Shown one piece after another: positions 2,040 to 41,150 of a stretch of 44,763 bases of DNA. The stretch covers positions 1 through 44,763 of the forward strand of contig CAYJII010000005.1 in assembly GCA_964370225.1 (NCBI GenBank), given 5' to 3'. Source of the stretch: an uncultured Oscillospiraceae bacterium (GTDB taxonomy: Bacteria; Bacillota; Clostridia; Oscillospirales; Ruminococcaceae). Position 1 is the first letter of the stretch; each line of letters starts with the position of its first letter. The notes beneath the pieces were generated by a model. That model was given only the letters and a program-made list of their open reading frames with translations, was not told the DNA's origin and made no database searches. Made by a program: the position numbers and the translations under genes.

Positions 2040-2510
2040 TTAAAACTCCTCTTTTTGCCTCAATTTTCTTAATTCATATCGTTTTTTGCCTGCTTGCCAC
2101 TCATCTTCCTCTTCCTGTGTCAAAAGTTTTAGCGCAGGAACTGTGCAAGGTCTGTCATTATCATCAATCGCAACCATAACAAGATGAGCTTTATTAACTA
2201 GCTTGTTTTCTGAGCTTTCATCCTCAATATATGTCTCTACACTGACTTCCATAGAAGTTTTGCCGACATATGTTATTTTGGCGATAAGCACGATAATATC
2301 GTTAATAAAAACAGCGGATTTAAAATTTAAATTATCTATGCAAATTGTCGTTACATTTTTGCCCGAATGTCTCCTTGCAGCAACAGCAGCGACAATGTCT
2401 ATCCACTCCATCAGCCTCCCACCGAATAAACGTCCGCTCCCGTTAATGTCAGCCGACAATATCATTTGCACCTGTGTTGTAAGCGAATGATTTACAGTTT
2501 TTTCCTTCAT
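2040..2510 (-). CDS. acyl-CoA thioester hydrolase (hotdog fold, YkhA/BFIT-like)
   Basis: 156 aa. The conserved GRLFGGRLMEWIDIVAA core is typical of cytosolic acyl-CoA thioesterases. Confidence 0.7.
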   Translation of the reverse strand: MKEKTVNHSLTTQVQMILSADINGSGRLFGGRLMEWIDIVAAVAARRHSGKNVTTICIDNLNFKSAVFINDIIVLIAKITYVGKTSMEVSVETYIEDESSENKLVNKAHLVMVAIDDNDRPCTVPALKLLTQEEEDEWQAGKKRYELRKLRQKEEF

Positions 2511-2792
2511 TTTACATACCCTCCATGATAAAAAAATGTGAATATATCAAAAAATTACACTAAAATTACTTAAACTTAATTATATCAGATATATGCACTT
2601 AAAAGCAAGGGTAAAACACATTAAAATTTTATCCATTATAACTATTGAATATTTTGCTCAATTGGTTTAAACTATAAATATAGATAATAATTTTTGTTTA
2701 ATATTTTGTCTTGCCATAGTCCAAATTTAAACTTATAAAAATCCTAATCTTTTTTGAGTTAATTTCTAATGAAATAAGAAGGGGTTGAGTGT

Positions 2793-3302
2793 ATGGATTT
2801 TACTAGTGGCATAAAATTAGTTCCGATAGTTTCGGAAGAGCAGATCAGAAAAATGTGTAAGATGGCAAATAAAATCTGGAATGAACATTACTCTCCTATC
2901 ATCGGTTTTGAGCAGGTAGAATATATGCTCAATAAATTCCAGTCGCCGGAAACTGTAAACAGACAGATGATTATCGAAAATTATCGCTGTTATTTTATAA
3001 ATTTTCGTGGAATAGATGCTGGTTATGTGATGTTTAAGATTGGAAACAACTCGTTGTTTTTAAGTAAGATTTACATTGATTCACAATACAGAGGACAAAA
3101 ACTTGGGAAAAGTGTTATAGATTTTTTAGTTGATTACTGTGAAGAATATGAACTGGAAAAAATATGGCTAACAGTTAACAAAAACAATGTAGGCTCTATT
3201 GCAGCATATGAAAAGATGGGGTTTGAAAAGACGCACGATCAAGTAGTTGATATCGGCAAGGGATATGTCATGGACGATTTTATTATGGAGAAAATTATCT
3301 AG
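2793..3302 (+). CDS. GNAT family N-acetyltransferase
   Basis: 169 aa with a Q/RxxGxG/A-like acetyl-CoA motif (YRGQKLGKSVIDFL). An RBS aaggggtt sits upstream. Confidence 0.65.
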   Translation: MDFTSGIKLVPIVSEEQIRKMCKMANKIWNEHYSPIIGFEQVEYMLNKFQSPETVNRQMIIENYRCYFINFRGIDAGYVMFKIGNNSLFLSKIYIDSQYRGQKLGKSVIDFLVDYCEEYELEKIWLTVNKNNVGSIAAYEKMGFEKTHDQVVDIGKGYVMDDFIMEKII

Positions 3303-3404
3303 TCTTTTTAGACAAAATTTAAAAACCGCGCTCTATAACGGAGGATAAGAAATTATCCTCCGTTATAGTGTCGTTTTAAGAAATAAATTGAAGGGAAAAT
3401 AGCA

Positions 3405-4004
3405 ATGTTTAATAGGCTTTTTCAAAAGAAATCTGGAGTGGAATTTTTAATCGTAGGGTTGGGTAATCCTACACCAAAATATGATAATACGAGGCATAAT
3501 GTCGGTTTTGAGGCTATAGATAGTATATCAAAGAAACTGTCTATCAACACTGATATTTTTAAGTTTAAGGCTAAAATAGGTAAAGGCGAAATTAACGGGA
3601 AAAAGTGCATGCTAATAAAACCCACTACTTTTATGAATTTGAGTGGTGAGGCTGTTTACGCTGTAATGCATTACTATAAAATCCCAATAGAAAATGTTAT
3701 AGTAATTTTTGATGATATATCACTTGATGTTGGCAAAGTAAGGATTAGGCGCAAAGGCTCGCATGGTGGGCATAACGGCATTAAAAGCATAATAGAACAA
3801 ACTGGTTCTGACAATTTCCCAAGAATTAAAGTTGGCGTGGGTAAAAAACCTCATCCTGACTATGATTTAGCTGACTGGGTTCTCTCTAAATTTACTAAAA
3901 AAGAAAAACCTTTCATAGATGAAGCTGTGGACAATTGTAGCGATATAATCAAATATATCATCGACGATAAAATAGATAAGGCTATGGCACTTTATAATAA
4001 GTAG
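3405..4004 (+). CDS. pth: peptidyl-tRNA hydrolase
   Basis: FLIVGLGNPTPKYDNTRHNVGF N-terminal signature and catalytic His region. Length is 199 aa. Confidence 0.9.
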   Translation: MFNRLFQKKSGVEFLIVGLGNPTPKYDNTRHNVGFEAIDSISKKLSINTDIFKFKAKIGKGEINGKKCMLIKPTTFMNLSGEAVYAVMHYYKIPIENVIVIFDDISLDVGKVRIRRKGSHGGHNGIKSIIEQTGSDNFPRIKVGVGKKPHPDYDLADWVLSKFTKKEKPFIDEAVDNCSDIIKYIIDDKIDKAMALYNK

Positions 4005-4372: not shown

Positions 4373-5887
4373 TTACTTAATTAAAGAAATTCCATCCATT
4401 TCAGCTGGAATTTCTAATCCTAGTAGAGTCAGCATAGTTGGCGCTAAGTCAGCTAGTTTACCGCCTTCCACAAGTTCACAATCTTTCCCACACACGATAA
4501 ACGGTACAGGATTTGTTGTATGAGCTGTGAAAGCAGAACCATCATCTTCGTACATACGGTCAGCATTGCCATGATCAGCAGTAATCAGCGCAACGCCACC
4601 TTTTGCAAGGATAGCATCAACAGTTTTACCAACGCATGTATCCACAGCTTCAACTGCTGTTTTAGCAGCATCAAATACGCCTGTGTGTCCTACCATGTCG
4701 CAGTTAGCGTAGTTTAGAATGATAACATCGTATTTGTCCGAGTTGATTCTCTCAACTACTTCATCACACACTTCAAACGCACTCATTTCTGGTTTTAAGT
4801 CATAAGTTGCAACTTTTGGAGATGGAATAAGTGCTCTTTCTTCGCCTGGGAACACTTCCTCAACACCACCGTTAAAGAAGAATGTTACATGTGCATATTT
4901 TTCAGTTTCTGCAATTCTAAGTTGAGTTAAACCTTTGTTGCTGATGTATTCGCCAAAAGTATTAGCTAGTGACTGTGGTTTGAATGCTACTGTAACATTT
5001 GGCATAGTAGCATCATATTGAGTCAAACAAACAAATGTTAGGTTTAAGTTAGCGTTAGTACGAGCAAAACCATCAAAGTTTTCATCAACGAAAGTTCTAG
5101 TGATTTCGCGAGCTCTGTCAGGTCTAAAGTTAAAGAATACTACACTATCCCCTGTGCTAATATTTGAGTTATCAGCACAAACTATTGGTTTAACGAATTC
5201 ATCAGTAATATTTGCATCATATGAAGCTTGCATGGATGCAACAGCATCATCGCTTTTCACGCCTATTCCGTTTACCATTGCGTTGTAAGCTTCCTCAACT
5301 CTTTCCCAGCGATTATCTCTATCCATTGCATAGTATCTTCCGATAACAGTTGCAATTTCCCCAACACCAATGCTATCCATTTGTGCTTGAAGCTCCTCAA
5401 CAAAGCTTTTGCCTGATGATGGAGGCACATCGCGTCCATCCATAAAACAATGTACGAAAACTTTTGTTAAGCCAGCATCTTTTGCTAGTTTAAGTAGTCC
5501 ATAAAGATGTCCATTGTGACTATGTACGCCGCCATCGGACAATAATCCCATAAAATGTAGTGCAGTATCGTTTTTCTTACAATTATCAATCGCTTTAGCA
5601 AAAGCTTCGTTTGTAAAAAAGTCGCCATCTTTAATTGATTTGGTAATTCTTGTTAGCTCTTGATAAACAATTCTACCAGCACCGATATTAGTATGTCCAA
5701 CTTCACTATTACCCATTTGTCCTTCTGGCAAGCCAACTTCCATTCCAGAAGCGCCTATTAAAGTGTTAGGGCATTCGTTGAATATTTTATCCATATTAGG
5801 AGTACTAGCAGCTATAACAGCATTACCATACTCATTTGGATTATAACCATAACCATCTAAAATGATTAATGCAACAGGTTTTTTCAT
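4373..5887 (-). CDS. gpmI: 2,3-bisphosphoglycerate-independent phosphoglycerate mutase
   Basis: 504 aa. N-terminus MKKPVALIILDGYGY, and the metal-binding and phosphoserine regions typical of iPGM. Confidence 0.93.
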   Translation of the reverse strand: MKKPVALIILDGYGYNPNEYGNAVIAASTPNMDKIFNECPNTLIGASGMEVGLPEGQMGNSEVGHTNIGAGRIVYQELTRITKSIKDGDFFTNEAFAKAIDNCKKNDTALHFMGLLSDGGVHSHNGHLYGLLKLAKDAGLTKVFVHCFMDGRDVPPSSGKSFVEELQAQMDSIGVGEIATVIGRYYAMDRDNRWERVEEAYNAMVNGIGVKSDDAVASMQASYDANITDEFVKPIVCADNSNISTGDSVVFFNFRPDRAREITRTFVDENFDGFARTNANLNLTFVCLTQYDATMPNVTVAFKPQSLANTFGEYISNKGLTQLRIAETEKYAHVTFFFNGGVEEVFPGEERALIPSPKVATYDLKPEMSAFEVCDEVVERINSDKYDVIILNYANCDMVGHTGVFDAAKTAVEAVDTCVGKTVDAILAKGGVALITADHGNADRMYEDDGSAFTAHTTNPVPFIVCGKDCELVEGGKLADLAPTMLTLLGLEIPAEMDGISLIK

Positions 5888-36011: not shown

Positions 36012-36623
36012 ATGATTGAGTGGTGGCAAGGCTTGAGCGCCTTGGGAAACATTTTTTTCACCATAGCTTTTTGCGCAACACTTATATTAGTTATTCAAAC
36101 GGTAATGTTGTTGTTTGGAATGGGATTTTCTGAAGCAGAAGTTGACTTTGAGGCAGACATGGAAGGTGTATCTTTATTTACTGTTAGAGGCTTAGTAGCA
36201 TTCTTCTCAGTAGGTGGTTGGACAGGACTTATACTTGTTAACTTAAATTTACACGGGATTGTAGCTATTCTTATTTCTATAGTAGCAGGCTACTTAGCAT
36301 TAATTGCAGTGGCGTATATTTTCAAATTTGCGATGAAGCTACAAGCGGACGCAACCATGGATATAAACTATGCTGTAGGAAGAACAGGCGAAGTGTATAT
36401 TCCAATACCAGCGCAAAAAACAGGGCATGGCAAAGTAAATTTGCTTTTGCACGACACAGTGGTAGAACTAGAGGCAGTGACCGAAGATGAGCAAATTATA
36501 AAAACAGGCCAGCAAATACGAGTTTTATCAGCACTAGACAATCAAACAGTTTTAGTAACATCAGCAAACACATTTATTAAAGACGATGAAACTAATCAAG
36601 ACGAAGAAGGAGCGATGTCATAA
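36012..36623 (+). CDS. NfeD-family membrane protein (YuaF/YqeZ-like, flotillin partner)
   Basis: N-terminal multi-TM segment plus a C-terminal OB-fold region. The stop overlaps the flotillin start (TAATG). Confidence 0.75.
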   Translation: MIEWWQGLSALGNIFFTIAFCATLILVIQTVMLLFGMGFSEAEVDFEADMEGVSLFTVRGLVAFFSVGGWTGLILVNLNLHGIVAILISIVAGYLALIAVAYIFKFAMKLQADATMDINYAVGRTGEVYIPIPAQKTGHGKVNLLLHDTVVELEAVTEDEQIIKTGQQIRVLSALDNQTVLVTSANTFIKDDETNQDEEGAMS

Positions 36624-38044
36624 TGGAAAATATGTTAATATTAATTTTAGTTACAGTAGTTGTTGTACTATTATTCTCAACACTTATCGTTATACTTACA
36701 AGGTACAGACGATGCCCATCAGATAAAATTTTGGTAGTTTACGGTAAAGTAGGCTCAAACAAAGACGGCTCACAAAGAAGTGCAAGATGTATACATGGTG
36801 GTGCGGCGTTCATCGTACCGGTTATACAATCGTATGAATATTTGGATTTGACTCCTATGTCAATTTCCGTTGACCTTAGAAATGCACTTTCTAAACAAAA
36901 TATCAGAATCGACGTTCCATCAAGATTTACAGTTGGTGTTTCAGTTGAACAAGGCGTTATGCAAAACGCTGCTGAGCGCTTACTAGGTTTAAAATTACCT
37001 GAAATTCAAGAGTTAGCAAAAGATATCATATTTGGTCAATTACGTCTAGTAATCGCAACAATGGATATCGAAGAAATTAATACTGACAGGGATAAGTTTT
37101 TATCAGCGGTTTCAAGCAATGTGGAAACTGAGCTTAAAAAAATCGGTTTAAGGCTAATCAACGTTAACGTAACTGACATTTCTGATGAATCTGGCTATAT
37201 CATCGCTTTAGGTAAAGAAGCAGCTGCAAAAGCTATCAACGACGCGAAAATTTCTGTTGCAGAAGCTGATCGCTCAGGTGCTATCGGTGAAGCGAACGCT
37301 CAAAGAGAGCAAAGAATTTCTGTATCACATGCAGACTCAGCAGCTATCCGAGGCGAAAATGAAGCTAGAGCGCAAATCGCTGAATCTAACGCTACATTGA
37401 GCGAAAAACAAGCTGAGGCACTAAAAAGAACTACTATCGCACAAAAAACTCAAGCTGCGAAAGCACTTGAAGAATCATACTCTGCAGAGCAACAAGCTGA
37501 ACAAGCAAGATATGCAAGAGATGAAGCATCACTTGAAGCTGACGTCATCGTAAAAACTGAAATTGACAAACGTCGTCTTGAGCTTGAAGCTGAGGCTGTA
37601 GCTGAACAAATTAGACGTAAAGCTAAAGGTGAAGCGGACGCAATTTACTTAAAAATGGAAGCGGAAGCTCGCGGTGTATCCGAAATGCTTACTAAACAAG
37701 CTCAAGGTTTATCACAAATTATTGCAGCTACTGGCGGTAACGCTGAAAATGCAATGAAACTGATGATTACAGATAAGCTTGAAACTCTAGTTGCTACGCA
37801 AGTAGAAGCAATCAAAAATATCAAAATTGACAAAGTTACAGTTTGGGATAGCGGTGCTAATGCTGATGGGAAAACACAAACAGCAAATTTCTTATCAGGC
37901 ATGATGAAATCACTTCCTCCACTAAACGAAGTTTTTGATATGGCTGGCATGGAGTTGCCTGAATTTTTAGGCAAAGATAAAGTTAGCGCAATTGCAAACC
38001 CAATAGTTGAACAAGCTGAAACTAGCGATACTACTACTGCATAA
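36623..38044 (+). CDS. floT: flotillin-like SPFH/band-7 protein (FloT/YuaG-like)
   Basis: N-terminal TM, SPFH domain, then a long Ala/Glu-rich heptad region (AEAxAEQ repeats) characteristic of flotillins. Confidence 0.85.
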   Translation: MENMLILILVTVVVVLLFSTLIVILTRYRRCPSDKILVVYGKVGSNKDGSQRSARCIHGGAAFIVPVIQSYEYLDLTPMSISVDLRNALSKQNIRIDVPSRFTVGVSVEQGVMQNAAERLLGLKLPEIQELAKDIIFGQLRLVIATMDIEEINTDRDKFLSAVSSNVETELKKIGLRLINVNVTDISDESGYIIALGKEAAAKAINDAKISVAEADRSGAIGEANAQREQRISVSHADSAAIRGENEARAQIAESNATLSEKQAEALKRTTIAQKTQAAKALEESYSAEQQAEQARYARDEASLEADVIVKTEIDKRRLELEAEAVAEQIRRKAKGEADAIYLKMEAEARGVSEMLTKQAQGLSQIIAATGGNAENAMKLMITDKLETLVATQVEAIKNIKIDKVTVWDSGANADGKTQTANFLSGMMKSLPPLNEVFDMAGMELPEFLGKDKVSAIANPIVEQAETSDTTTA

Positions 38045-38078: not shown

Positions 38079-38107
38079 TTGACAATAATGCATATTTGGT
38101 ATATAAT
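38079..38107 (+). promoter_or_regulatory. consensus sigma-A promoter TTGACA-17-TATAAT driving SCIFF precursor
   Basis: Exact consensus hexamers at 38079-84 and 38102-07 with a 17-nt spacer, about 50 nt upstream of the peptide ATG. Confidence 0.65.
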
Positions 38108-38156
38108 AATACCGATAACATAGTAACAAAACTTTAATGTTAATGGAGATGAAATA

Positions 38157-38309
38157 ATGGAAAGAATTAAAACAATTAAAACTCGTGATCTACAAACAAG
38201 TGCTAAAACAGGCGGTTGTGGCGAATGCCAAACATCTTGCCAATCAGCATGCAAAACATCTTGCGGTGTAGCAAATCAACCTTGCGAAAACGAAAGCGAA
38301 AGTAAATAA
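38157..38309 (+). CDS. scfA: SCIFF (six-cysteines-in-forty-five) ranthipeptide precursor peptide, 50 aa; not in ORF track
   Basis: Translation MERIKTIKTRDLQTSAKTGGCGECQTSCQSACKTSCGVANQPCENESESK contains the hallmark GGCGECQTSCQSACKTSC core. RBS GGAG 9 nt upstream. Immediately upstream of an rSAM/SPASM gene. Confidence 0.88.
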   Translation: MERIKTIKTRDLQTSAKTGGCGECQTSCQSACKTSCGVANQPCENESESK

Positions 38310-38333: not shown

Positions 38334-38368
38334 AAAATGCCGCCTTAACTATTAAGGCGGCATTTTTT
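38334..38368 (+). terminator. attenuator / partial terminator between precursor and maturase
   Basis: Perfect 14-bp stem aaaatgccgcctta/taaggcggcatttt with a 5-nt loop and a trailing T-run, placed between scfA and scfB. Confidence 0.6.
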
Positions 38369-38403: not shown

Positions 38404-39777
38404 TTGGTACACCAATATAAATTAAACGGATATAATCTAGTATTAGATTCAGTAAGTGGAGCAATTCATTCAGTCGATGATGTTGCTTACGATATGATAA
38501 AAGATTACAAAAATAAAGATAAAGCTACTCTTATTGGCGAGCTATTATCAAAATATAATGATAGATCTGATGTCACTAGCGATGAGCTTGAGGCATGCTT
38601 TTCTGATATAGAGTATTTAGTTGAAGAAAAACAGCTTTTTACTCCTGATACGTACGAAACACTAGCAAAGAACTACAAAAATAACTCTAATGTTATAAAA
38701 GCTCTCTGCTTCCATATTGCGCATACTTGCAACTTAAACTGCGAGTACTGTTTTGCTTCACAAGGAAATTATAAAGGCGATAGAGCTTTAATGAGTTTTG
38801 AAGTAGGAAAAAGAGCAATCGATTTTTTAATAGAAAATTCAGGTAGTAGAAGAAATCTTGAAGTCGACTTTTTCGGTGGCGAACCTTTGATGAACTGGCA
38901 AACTGTAAAAGACATTGTCGCATATGCAAGGAGCGTCGAAAAAGCACATAACAAAAATTTCCGCTTTACGCTAACTACAAATGGAATTTCTATCGATGAT
39001 GATGTAATCGAATTTTCTAACAAGGAAATGCACAATGTAGTATTATCTTTAGACGGCAGAAAAGAAGTCCATGACCACTTAAGAAAAGACTATAAAAATC
39101 GCGGTAGCTATGATGTCATCGTGCCTAAGTTTCAAGAATTTGTTGAAAAAAGAAATGGTAAGGGCTATTATATGAGAGGCACATTTACACATAATAATCC
39201 AGATTTTACAAATGATATCTTGCACATGCTTGACCTTGGATTTACTGAGCTTAGTATGGAACCTGTAGTAGCTAGCGAAGGCGATGCGTATGCTTTAACA
39301 AAAGAAGATTTACCGATATTGTTCGAACAATACGAATTATTAGCAAAAGAGATGATGAAACGGAAAAAAGAAGGAAAACCATTTTCTTTTTACCATTATA
39401 ACATAGATTTAACAAACGGTCCTTGCGTTTATAAAAGGATTACAGGTTGCGGTTCTGGGACTGAGTACATGGCAGTTACCCCTTGGGGCGAGCTATTTCC
39501 ATGTCATCAGTTTGTTGGTGATGAAAAATATAGTCTTGGAAATATTTTTGATGGCGTGAGCAATCTAGACGCACAGGATGAATTCAGATCATGTAATATC
39601 TACACAAAAGAGGAATGTGTTACTTGCTGGGCAAATTTATATTGCTCGGGCGGATGTCCTGCAAACGCTTTTCATGCGACAGGCGACATAAACGGTATAT
39701 ACGAATACGGTTGTGAGCTTTTTAAAAAGCGCATCGAGTGCGCTATTATGATGCAGGTAGCAAATCAAGAGGATTAA
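38404..39777 (+). CDS. scfB: SCIFF radical SAM maturase (rSAM with C-terminal SPASM domain)
   Basis: CNLNCEYC (CxxxCxxC) radical SAM motif and C-terminal SPASM cysteines (CVYKRITGCGSG...CHQF...CVTCWANLYCSGGCPANA). TTG start preceded by GAGGAG. N-terminus MVHQYKLNGYN matches the family. Confidence 0.88.
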   Translation: MVHQYKLNGYNLVLDSVSGAIHSVDDVAYDMIKDYKNKDKATLIGELLSKYNDRSDVTSDELEACFSDIEYLVEEKQLFTPDTYETLAKNYKNNSNVIKALCFHIAHTCNLNCEYCFASQGNYKGDRALMSFEVGKRAIDFLIENSGSRRNLEVDFFGGEPLMNWQTVKDIVAYARSVEKAHNKNFRFTLTTNGISIDDDVIEFSNKEMHNVVLSLDGRKEVHDHLRKDYKNRGSYDVIVPKFQEFVEKRNGKGYYMRGTFTHNNPDFTNDILHMLDLGFTELSMEPVVASEGDAYALTKEDLPILFEQYELLAKEMMKRKKEGKPFSFYHYNIDLTNGPCVYKRITGCGSGTEYMAVTPWGELFPCHQFVGDEKYSLGNIFDGVSNLDAQDEFRSCNIYTKEECVTCWANLYCSGGCPANAFHATGDINGIYEYGCELFKKRIECAIMMQVANQED

Positions 39778-39779
39778 TT

Positions 39780-41150
39780 ATGGATACGCCTATTTACGAT
39801 TTTATACGCAGATATTCAGCTGAAAATTTCACTAGGCTCCATATGCCGGGGCATAAAGGTGAAAATATTTTTGGGTGCGAAAATTTTGATATCACCGAAA
39901 TTGATGGTGCGGATAATTTATATTCACCTGAAGACGATGGTATCATTAAGAAAAGCGAGGCTAACGCTTCCAAACTATATGAAACAAAAGCGACTTTTTA
40001 TTCGACAGGCGGGTCTAGTCAGTGTATTTTTGCTATGCTTTATCTAGCTAAAATTGCTGCCAAAAAAAAACCATCTGAGGACGTTGTCCTTGTAGCACGA
40101 AATGCACATAAGACATTCGTGTCTGCTTGTGCTCTACTGGATATCAACCCTATGTGGATGTATCCAAGCGACGATGCAACTAGTGGTATTTGTAGCTGTG
40201 TGATAACAAAAACTGACCTTGAAACTAAACTAGCAAATATGAGTAATATGCCTATTGCAGTTTTTATTACTTCCCCCGATTATTTAGGCAATATCGCTGA
40301 CATCAAAGGCTTAAGTGAAGTTTGTGGCAGATACGATGTTCCTCTTCTTATAGACAATGCACATGGTGCATATCTTAAGTTTTTACAGAATGATATCCAC
40401 CCTATTACACTCGGAGCAAGTATGTCATGTGACTCAGCGCATAAGACTCTACCCGTGCTCACGGGAGGAGCTTATCTGCATATAAATAAAAACTCACCAG
40501 CCTCTTACAAAGATAGCGCTAAGGTTGCACTATCTTTGTTTGGCTCAACTTCCCCATCGTATTTAACTTTAACTTCACTGGACTTGTGTAATAAAATATT
40601 AAGTGAAGATTTTCCGAAAAACCTTAATAGGCATGTCAAATCCATAAATGCTCTTAAGGCTACACTTTACGATAATGATATCAAATATTTAGATGGAGAG
40701 CCTTTAAAATTAACGCTATTATGCTCTGAAATGTCCGTTTCCCCTCAAAAGATTGCGCATATTCTAAGGAAAAATAAGATTGAAATTGAATTTGCTGACA
40801 ATGATTTTTTAGTGTGTATGTTCACAGCACAAATTTCTGATGAGGAATTAGCTGATTTTGCATCGTTACTACTTAATATTTTCAGTAAGCGAGAAAATAT
40901 TGCGTCTACCCCATTGGAAAGTATCGCTATACCAACAGCGATACAAGCTATGAGTATACGCGAAGCTATATTCTCACCACAGCAAAAAATCAAGGCGGAT
41001 AATGCTGCTATTGGTAAGATTTGTGCCTCACTTGCTGTATCATGCCCCCCTGCCATTCCCATAGCAGTGAGTGGCGAGATTATTCAAAGCGAGCATATTA
41101 AACTATTTAATCATTATGATATAAATGAAATATTCGTTGTAAGCGAATGA
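39780..41150 (+). CDS. PLP-dependent Orn/Lys/Arg decarboxylase family protein (Bacillus YaaO/SpeA-like)
   Basis: SxHK PLP-lysine motif (SCDSAHKTLPVLTGG) and HMPGHKG N-terminal motif. Start set at ATG 39780 (MDTPIYDF), 2 nt after the scfB stop, with AAGAGGA upstream. The track ORF starts at 39738 in an overlapping stretch. Confidence 0.8.
   Translation: MDTPIYDFIRRYSAENFTRLHMPGHKGENIFGCENFDITEIDGADNLYSPEDDGIIKKSEANASKLYETKATFYSTGGSSQCIFAMLYLAKIAAKKKPSEDVVLVARNAHKTFVSACALLDINPMWMYPSDDATSGICSCVITKTDLETKLANMSNMPIAVFITSPDYLGNIADIKGLSEVCGRYDVPLLIDNAHGAYLKFLQNDIHPITLGASMSCDSAHKTLPVLTGGAYLHINKNSPASYKDSAKVALSLFGSTSPSYLTLTSLDLCNKILSEDFPKNLNRHVKSINALKATLYDNDIKYLDGEPLKLTLLCSEMSVSPQKIAHILRKNKIEIEFADNDFLVCMFTAQISDEELADFASLLLNIFSKRENIASTPLESIAIPTAIQAMSIREAIFSPQQKIKADNAAIGKICASLAVSCPPAIPIAVSGEIIQSEHIKLFNHYDINEIFVVSE

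Follow-up and report, generated by a model that had tools for sequence, protein, structure and literature searches.

The scfA locus described here is an ordinary member of a large subclass of SCIFF precursors in which residue 37 is glycine, and with the adjoining maturase gene it is best read as a standard scfA–scfB ranthipeptide cassette whose likeliest cross-link would join Cys32 to Thr34, a reading to which we assign a probability of roughly 0.55. The locus lies in a window of 44,763 nucleotides (the whole stretch of DNA that was analysed), with a GC content of 35.8%. The original prediction had singled out the peptide because glycine stands where a cross-linked threonine had been described in a characterised homologue; across the sampled sequences this glycine turned out to be a common state of single origin.

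The scfA gene and its peptide

For characterisation of the precursor gene, the open reading frame was translated and its product, MERIKTIKTRDLQTSAKTGGCGECQTSCQSACKTSCGVANQPCENESESK, was scored against protein family models. It reached 82 bits with TIGR03973, the 'six-cysteine ranthipeptide SCIFF' model, for which the cut-off is 50, and 82.1 bits with Pfam PF13165, for which it is 27. Because both scores exceed their cut-offs, and a consensus promoter and a GGAGA ribosome-binding site precede the ATG (Table 1), scfA is a genuine gene and no chance open reading frame. Translation places its cysteines at residues 21, 24, 28, 32, 36 and 43, and both the six cysteines typical of these roughly 45-residue peptides and the conserved core of the SCIFF family, GGCGECQTSCQSACKTSC, are found in the peptide; among the matches listed, this core is the same as in the 120 genome and 107 metagenome peptides sampled below. 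The gene sits directly 5' of a TIGR03974 maturase gene, scfB, the start of which lies 95 nt past the scfA stop.

When the DNA between the two genes was folded as RNA, a hairpin with a T run behind it emerged, at −21.8 kcal/mol and z = −5.4; 0 of 200 shuffled sequences folded equally well. A simple terminator scan reported nothing between scfA and scfB, although folding finds this strong hairpin there. The hairpin is probably a leaky intrinsic terminator and would probably keep the peptide well in excess of the enzyme.

A search of the PDB with the peptide missed the CteA leader chain of 5WGG, and a match to an epoxyqueuosine reductase was rejected as chance. Full-text literature searches with the motifs CKTSC, SCQSAC and GGCGECQ returned irrelevant papers only.

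Table 1. Positions in the window of scfA, its signals and the neighbouring genes
Feature	Position	Strand	Basis or remark
Gene pair just 5' of scfA	36012..38044		stop and start overlap by one base
Putative promoter upstream of scfA, TTGACA-17-TATAAT	38079..38107	+	12/12 consensus positions, match only
Ribosome-binding site GGAGA, 7 nt 5' of scfA ATG	38145..38149	+	direct sequence reading
scfA, 50-aa SCIFF precursor	38157..38309	+	ORF and translation, TIGR03973, PF13165
scfA leader, residues 1–20	38157..38216	+	
scfA core, residues 21–50	38217..38306	+	
Cys32 codon; donor Cys in characterised homologues (PMC8326336, PMC12164859)	38250..38252	+	translation
Thr34 codon ACA; invariant Thr, acceptor candidate	38256..38258	+	
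Gly37 codon GGT; position flagged by the original prediction	38265..38267	+	translation
scfA stop codon	38307..38309	+	
Hairpin with 15-bp stem, then T run, between scfA and scfB	38334..38368	+	RNA folding
scfB, radical SAM/SPASM SCIFF maturase, 457 aa, TTG start	38404..39777	+	TIGR03974
PLP-dependent Orn/Lys/Arg-decarboxylase-family gene, 456 aa	39780..41150	+	PF01276, E = 5.4e-36

Register and frequency of glycine at residue 37

The claim that residue 37 is glycine was borne out by translation, and the leader length and cysteine register on which the numbering had been based (C21/C24/C28/C32/C36/C43, as in the characterised type) were confirmed against the SCIFF of Acetivibrio straminisolvens (locus L073), MKHIKVLNGSTLKDGLKKGGCGECQTSCQSACKTSCTVANQSCEKK. 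This peptide, from a congener of the CteA host, has an equal leader of 20 residues and carries a threonine exactly opposite Gly37 of the window. An alignment offset as the source of the glycine was rejected, as the leader length and all six cysteines are in register with Thr37 peptides.

What did not stand is Gly37 as a peculiarity of this locus. Glycine was found in 120 of the 120 nearest 90%-identity clusters, with the motif CKTSCG[VI]ANQxC, and several of these already carry the NCBI name 'six-cysteine ranthipeptide SCIFF'; at the 50% identity level, 141 of 142 cluster representatives had it as well. Since both cluster lists are ordered by similarity to the scfA peptide, two arbitrary samples were drawn with DNA patterns that leave position 37 free. 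The genome sample comprised 120 species-representative genomes with the core CQTSCQSACKTSC, among the matches listed, and is no census. The metagenome sample comprised 120 contigs with 107 distinct peptides, again among the matches listed, and here residues 33–35 were also left free.

Tabulation of residue 37, which the original prediction had proposed, confirmed the glycine as real and showed it not to be rare. Among the matches listed, the 121 peptides of the 120 species genomes divided into 62 with Gly and 59 with Thr (51% Gly), and 105 distinct metagenome peptides into 26 with Gly and 79 with Thr (25% Gly); a further 2 of the 107 metagenome peptides end before position 37. Position 37 was strictly Thr or Gly in 226 distinct sequences among the matches listed. 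A change from GGN to ACN takes two nucleotide changes. Gly37 was paired with Ala39 in 87 of 89 cases, and Thr37 with Gly39 (114) or Ala39 (23), among the matches listed. Because Thr and Gly are the sole residues found despite the two-change path, and because Gly37 comes nearly always with Ala39, residue 37 is not neutral and does something; its role could be that of an acceptor in the Thr class, or it could belong to a turn. No characterised SCIFF of the Gly37 class was found in the searchable literature.

The tail past Cys43 (ENESESK, 7 residues, net charge −2) had also been called unusual. A survey of tails places it at the long, acidic end of the family range yet inside it: the median length in the Gly37 class is 5 residues, with 7 or more in 21–25% of tails and a charge of −2 or lower in 3–15%, and the same ...ESK ending was present in 13 of 59 Gly37 peptides of the genome sample (among the matches listed).

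The ScfB maturase

ScfB of the window scored 747.8 bits against TIGR03974 (cut-off 425) and 570 against the exception model NF040492 ('not_ScfB', cut-off 855), and it is therefore not of the orphan type. It aligned end to end with CteB (PDB 5WGG, E = 2e-168). The CX3CX2C motif was located at C109/C113/C116, the cysteines of auxiliary cluster 1 at C349/C367/C418 and those of auxiliary cluster 2 at C405/C408/C414/C437; their counterparts in CteB are C104/108/111, C344/362/413 and C400/403/409/432 (numbering of PMC10177961). These cluster-ligand cysteines are conserved in 99% of 90 aligned ScfB sequences. Enzymes of the ScfB type fall together with QhpD and PapB, which act on side-chain carbons, and not with the sactisynthases (PMC11002830), and the window maturase is of this QhpD/PapB-like type and not of the AlbA type. 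For Tte1186, selenium spectroscopy on a selenocysteine variant of its peptide Tte1186a places the cross-linking residue at auxiliary cluster 1 (PMC10177961, PMC12164859).

The two ScfB classes differ at a number of positions. Gly37-class enzymes have Thr108, just before the first radical SAM cysteine, where the Thr37 class has Asp; at positions 175, 309, 330 and 332 they carry Ala, Gln, Tyr and Tyr, against Gly, Glu, Phe and Phe in the Thr37 class. CteB agrees with the Thr37 class at 108, 309, 330 and 332 but has the Gly37-class Ala at 175. Co-adaptation as an explanation of these class-specific residues was rejected, because in a class that arose only once such residues are confounded with phylogeny.

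The Gly37 subclass as a lineage

When 157 ScfB proteins from the sampled loci were placed in a neighbour-joining tree, the Gly37-class enzymes formed one pure clade (60/60) with one state change, and a first tree of 88 proteins had placed 42 of 43 of them in one clade. Mean ScfB identity was 52% between classes, against 68% among Gly-class and 54% among Thr-class enzymes. The window enzyme falls in the Gly37 clade, where it shares about 71% identity with those of Acutalibacteraceae and uncultured Clostridia. Named carriers of Gly37 are mostly of Oscillospirales type (Gemmiger formicilis, Faecalibacterium, Acutalibacter, Ruminococcus and Oscillibacter), with Anaerotignum propionicum as a further carrier; among the Thr37 carriers are Lachnospiraceae, Clostridiaceae, Peptoniphilaceae, Veillonella, Dialister, Peptococcaceae and Acetivibrio.

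A reading of the Gly37 class as decaying or pseudogenised was rejected, as scfB is intact and kept. Among loci with sufficient downstream DNA, scfB was complete at 37 of 38 with Gly37 and 38 of 39 with Thr37, and this retention shows that the Gly37 subclass is maintained and not decaying.

Two full leader-plus-core SCIFF units fused in tandem were seen at L019 (approximately 5560..5840), L112, P0001, P0003, P0006, P0074 and P0121, all with Gly37. P0001 has Ser for Cys32 in both of its units, and P0121 has Ser for both Cys32 and Cys36 in each; with Cys32 replaced in both units, these two peptides are without the known donor cysteine. A few SCIFF contigs were found in bins labelled Bacteroidota, Bacteroidales, Bacteroides or Ectobacillus (L049, L057, L083 and L090), and either misbinning or lateral transfer of an otherwise Clostridia-typical cassette may account for them.

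Gene context and the decarboxylase-family gene

The decarboxylase-family gene, which is conserved as the third member of cassettes of the Gly37 class, has an ATG 3 nt past the scfB stop. A GTG at 39738 opens the mechanically called open reading frame, which shares 40 nt with scfB; the ATG at 39780 is supported as the real start by homologues and by an alignment with 2X3L. The nearest solved structure is 2X3L (E = 1.3e-26), an Orn/Lys/Arg decarboxylase family protein of Staphylococcus aureus, which matches the product over nearly its whole length and with which its HK motif aligned. We take this HK motif to be the site of the PLP-binding lysine. No NCBIfam model matched the protein at cut-off, and its close homologues are named 'amino acid decarboxylase' or 'arginine decarboxylase' in their sources.

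The distribution of this gene was then compared between classes. A decarboxylase-family gene adjoins scfAB at 46 of the 60 Gly37 loci and at none of the 97 Thr37 loci: in 35 Gly37 loci the homologue lies directly 3' of scfB, with a median gap of −1 nt, so that stop and start mostly touch or overlap, and in 11 further ones a PF01276 paralogue of about 29% identity lies directly 5' of scfA. Anaerotignum propionicum and an Oscillibacter sp. have the same three genes in unrelated flanks, both with a Gly37 peptide; the decarboxylase-family gene occupies 4501..5835 at L241 (A. propionicum) and 2422..3762 at L242. Within the Gly37 clade the arrangement changes at least three times. Because the Gly37 class has a single origin, its association with the decarboxylase-family gene amounts to about one event; because the adjacency has been kept through complete turnover of the flanks and through changes of arrangement, selection for it is suggested.

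General synteny as the cause of the adjacency was rejected, since the other neighbours are unconserved across 238 related loci and A. propionicum and Oscillibacter have other flanks. None of the URO-D-like, NfeD-like, flotillin and CopA neighbours of the window recurs in those 238 loci, with one weak match for CopA. The pair 5' of scfA encodes a membrane protein of 203 aa without a family match, presumably NfeD-like (assigned by eye only), and, as its second gene, a 473-aa flotillin-like protein of the SPFH/Band 7 type.

At Thr37 loci the precursor and maturase genes are part of a conserved housekeeping block, tgt-yajC-DUF3792-scfA-scfB-secDF (representatives L109, L164, L111, L017 and L163), and secDF comes after scfB in 52 Thr37 loci and 0 Gly37 loci. 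A gene that often follows secDF in this block is, as judged by eye, presumably recJ-like. Gly37-class cassettes have left the block, and in the window scfAB is flanked instead by the NfeD-like and flotillin genes on the 5' side and by the decarboxylase-family and CopA genes on the 3' side. No paper tying SCIFF to a decarboxylase was found in the searchable literature, nor was any description there of a Gly37 subclass with its own maturase clade and decarboxylase-family partner.

Comparison with characterised systems

The window shares its two-gene layout with CteA/CteB (thermocellin, Acetivibrio (Clostridium) thermocellus) and Tte1186a/Tte1186 (Caldanaerobacter subterraneus). Its peptide has the 20-residue leader and the cysteine spacing 21/24/28/32/36/43 of CteA and Tte1186a, and the core GGCGECQTSCQSACKTSC, including Cys32 and Thr34, is identical; ScfB can be aligned with CteB over the full length with all three cluster sites kept. 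It differs in having Gly37 with Ala39, whereas the CteA/Tte1186a type has Thr37 with Gly or Ala at 39, and in a maturase that belongs to a clade separate from the CteB/Tte1186 type. The gene order is scfA–scfB–decarboxylase family and not the tgt-yajC-DUF3792-scfAB-secDF of the thermocellin type, and the tail is slightly longer and more acidic than those of CteA and Tte1186a.

PapB (freyrasin, Paenibacillus polymyxa) is a homologue of ScfB, and the PapB model NF047865 gives the window enzyme 276 bits, below its cut-off of 340; the maturase scores as ScfB and not as PapB. As in ScfB ranthipeptides, the donor in PapA/PapB is a cysteine sulfur and the acceptor a side-chain carbon. The acceptors in PapA are Asp Cβ carbons of six CX3D motifs (PMC8172795, PMC10177961), whereas the core of the window peptide is without Asp. 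Residues N40-Q41-P42-C43 of the window peptide form an NxxC motif, a likeness in motif only to NxxcA/NxxcB of Streptococcus orisratti. In NxxcA, Cys23 is linked to Cβ of Asn20 (PMC8326336); unlike this residue, Asn40 has not been reported as linked in any SCIFF.

Assignment of the cross-link acceptor

It had been argued that glycine at residue 37 cannot accept a thioether at Cβ or Cγ, which is chemically right, and the scfA peptide can therefore have no Cys32–Thr37 ranthionine. The wider premise, that CteB links Cys32 to Thr37, holds for only part of the published work. In vitro, Tte1186 and CteB each gave a single Cys32–Thr37 link as judged by mass spectrometry (Bruender 2016, Grove 2017; per PMC8172795, PMC8326336). 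When CteA and CteB were co-expressed in E. coli, a Cys32–Thr34 link was obtained (Hudson 2019), and it was on this in vivo product, with its Thr34 link, that the Cγ chemistry was demonstrated (both per PMC8172795, PMC8326336). The premise had thus fused the in vitro position with the in vivo Cγ chemistry, which come from two separate experiments. Both reviews leave the discrepancy between Thr34 and Thr37 standing (PMC8172795, PMC8326336).

Of the two residues assigned in thermocellin-type SCIFF (CteA, Tte1186a), the scfA peptide lacks Thr37, being Gly there, and keeps Thr34. All 107 metagenome peptides, for which residues 33–35 had been left unconstrained, carry Lys33, Thr34 and Ser35 (among the matches listed). 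A published candidate acceptor is accordingly at hand, because Thr34 is both present here and invariant in that sample. The proposal that a cross-linked peptide must use either a different acceptor or a Cα bond was thus correct as to the first alternative, for which Thr34 stands ready, and exotic chemistry is not required. Since glycine occupies residue 37 in a quarter to a half of the members sampled, a side-chain link at that residue is not a conserved feature of the family. Read together, the invariance of Thr34 and the natural variation to Gly37 favour the Thr34 assignment. Against it, the Thr34 assignment is known to us through two reviews and conflicts with two in vitro studies that assigned Thr37. 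On balance, a link from the sulfur of Cys32 to Cγ of Thr34 is the most likely one.

In the sequence of events that we propose, scfA would be transcribed from its own strong promoter, and the hairpin past its stop would probably pass only part of the transcripts into scfB and the decarboxylase-family gene. The N-terminal peptide-recognition domain of ScfB would bind leader residues 1–20. SAM would then be cleaved at the CX3CX2C cluster, a hydrogen would be taken from a side-chain carbon of the core, and this carbon would be joined to a cysteine sulfur (Cys32) held on auxiliary cluster 1. The acceptor would most probably be Cγ of Thr34, as reported for thermocellin made in vivo; residue 37 could not serve through a side-chain carbon, because it is glycine.

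Other or additional thioethers to invariant residues further downstream, with residue 37 acting as a structural turn, were considered as an alternative and appear rather unlikely. The candidates would be Asn40 within NxxC, a Cys36-X3-Asn40 pair, or Glu44. In the metagenome peptides, among the matches listed, Asn40 was conserved in 105 of 105, Gln41 in 104 of 105, Cys43 in 103 of 103 long enough to include it and Glu44 in 97 of 103; five of the six cysteines are without an assigned role, and the covariation of Gly37/Ala39 against Thr37/Gly39 resembles a flexible turn that has been kept. An NxxC motif with a Cys–Asn Cβ link is that of NxxcA, and CX3D is that of PapB (PMC8326336, PMC8172795), but such resemblance of motifs is an argument by analogy, and Thr37-type peptides gave a single Cys32 link both in vitro and in E. 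coli (PMC8172795, PMC8326336). The native product in Clostridia may nevertheless carry more than that single link.

A Cα thioether (sactionine) is the sole way in which Gly37 itself could be an acceptor. Here the Gly37-class ScfB would take the Cα hydrogen of Gly37 and form a sactionine-type bond between Cys and Gly, with the ring size of the in vitro Cys32–Thr37 product. The restriction of position 37 to Thr or Gly would fit such a direct role, as would a separate ScfB clade with residues of its own (Thr108, Tyr330, Tyr332), and Cα hydrogen abstraction by related radical SAM/SPASM enzymes is established for sactipeptides (PMC8172795). The class-specific residues are, however, wholly confounded with phylogeny through their one origin, and ScfB types cluster with the side-chain enzymes QhpD and PapB (PMC11002830), which makes a Cα bond at Gly37 improbable. 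That Gly37-class peptides are not cross-linked at all, with the cysteines serving as metal or Fe-S ligands and ScfB kept for another role, could draw on the missing in vitro acceptor Thr37 and on the serines of the rare tandem-fused relatives P0001 and P0121, but is very improbable in view of an adjoining ScfB intact in all catalytic cysteines at 37 of 38 Gly37 loci, a core under extreme purifying selection, and a peptide and maturase that diverged jointly as one clade.

Implications for the SCIFF family

Few peptide gene clusters are as widespread in Clostridia and in the gut microbiome as those of SCIFF (PMC13289728, bioRxiv 10.1101/2025.02.12.637840), and for the peptides that have been characterised the published acceptor assignments conflict, with Thr37 in vitro against Thr34 in vivo. 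For the scfA locus itself the outcome is deflationary, as Gly37 is normal; what interest remains is at the level of the family, and is modest. As a speculative and fairly improbable extension, Gly37 SCIFF could be a separate chemotype rather than a silent variant, its single-origin ScfB clade installing a ring topology unlike that of the Thr37 type (Cys32–Thr34 alone, a bond to Cα of Gly37, or one to Asn40 of the NxxC motif), and the decarboxylase-family gene would be a third working part of the pathway. Apart from this extension, the partnership of the subclass with a PLP-dependent decarboxylase-family gene offers a tangible and inexpensive way into SCIFF biology, and cultured carriers of the Gly37 class exist in Anaerotignum propionicum and Gemmiger formicilis.
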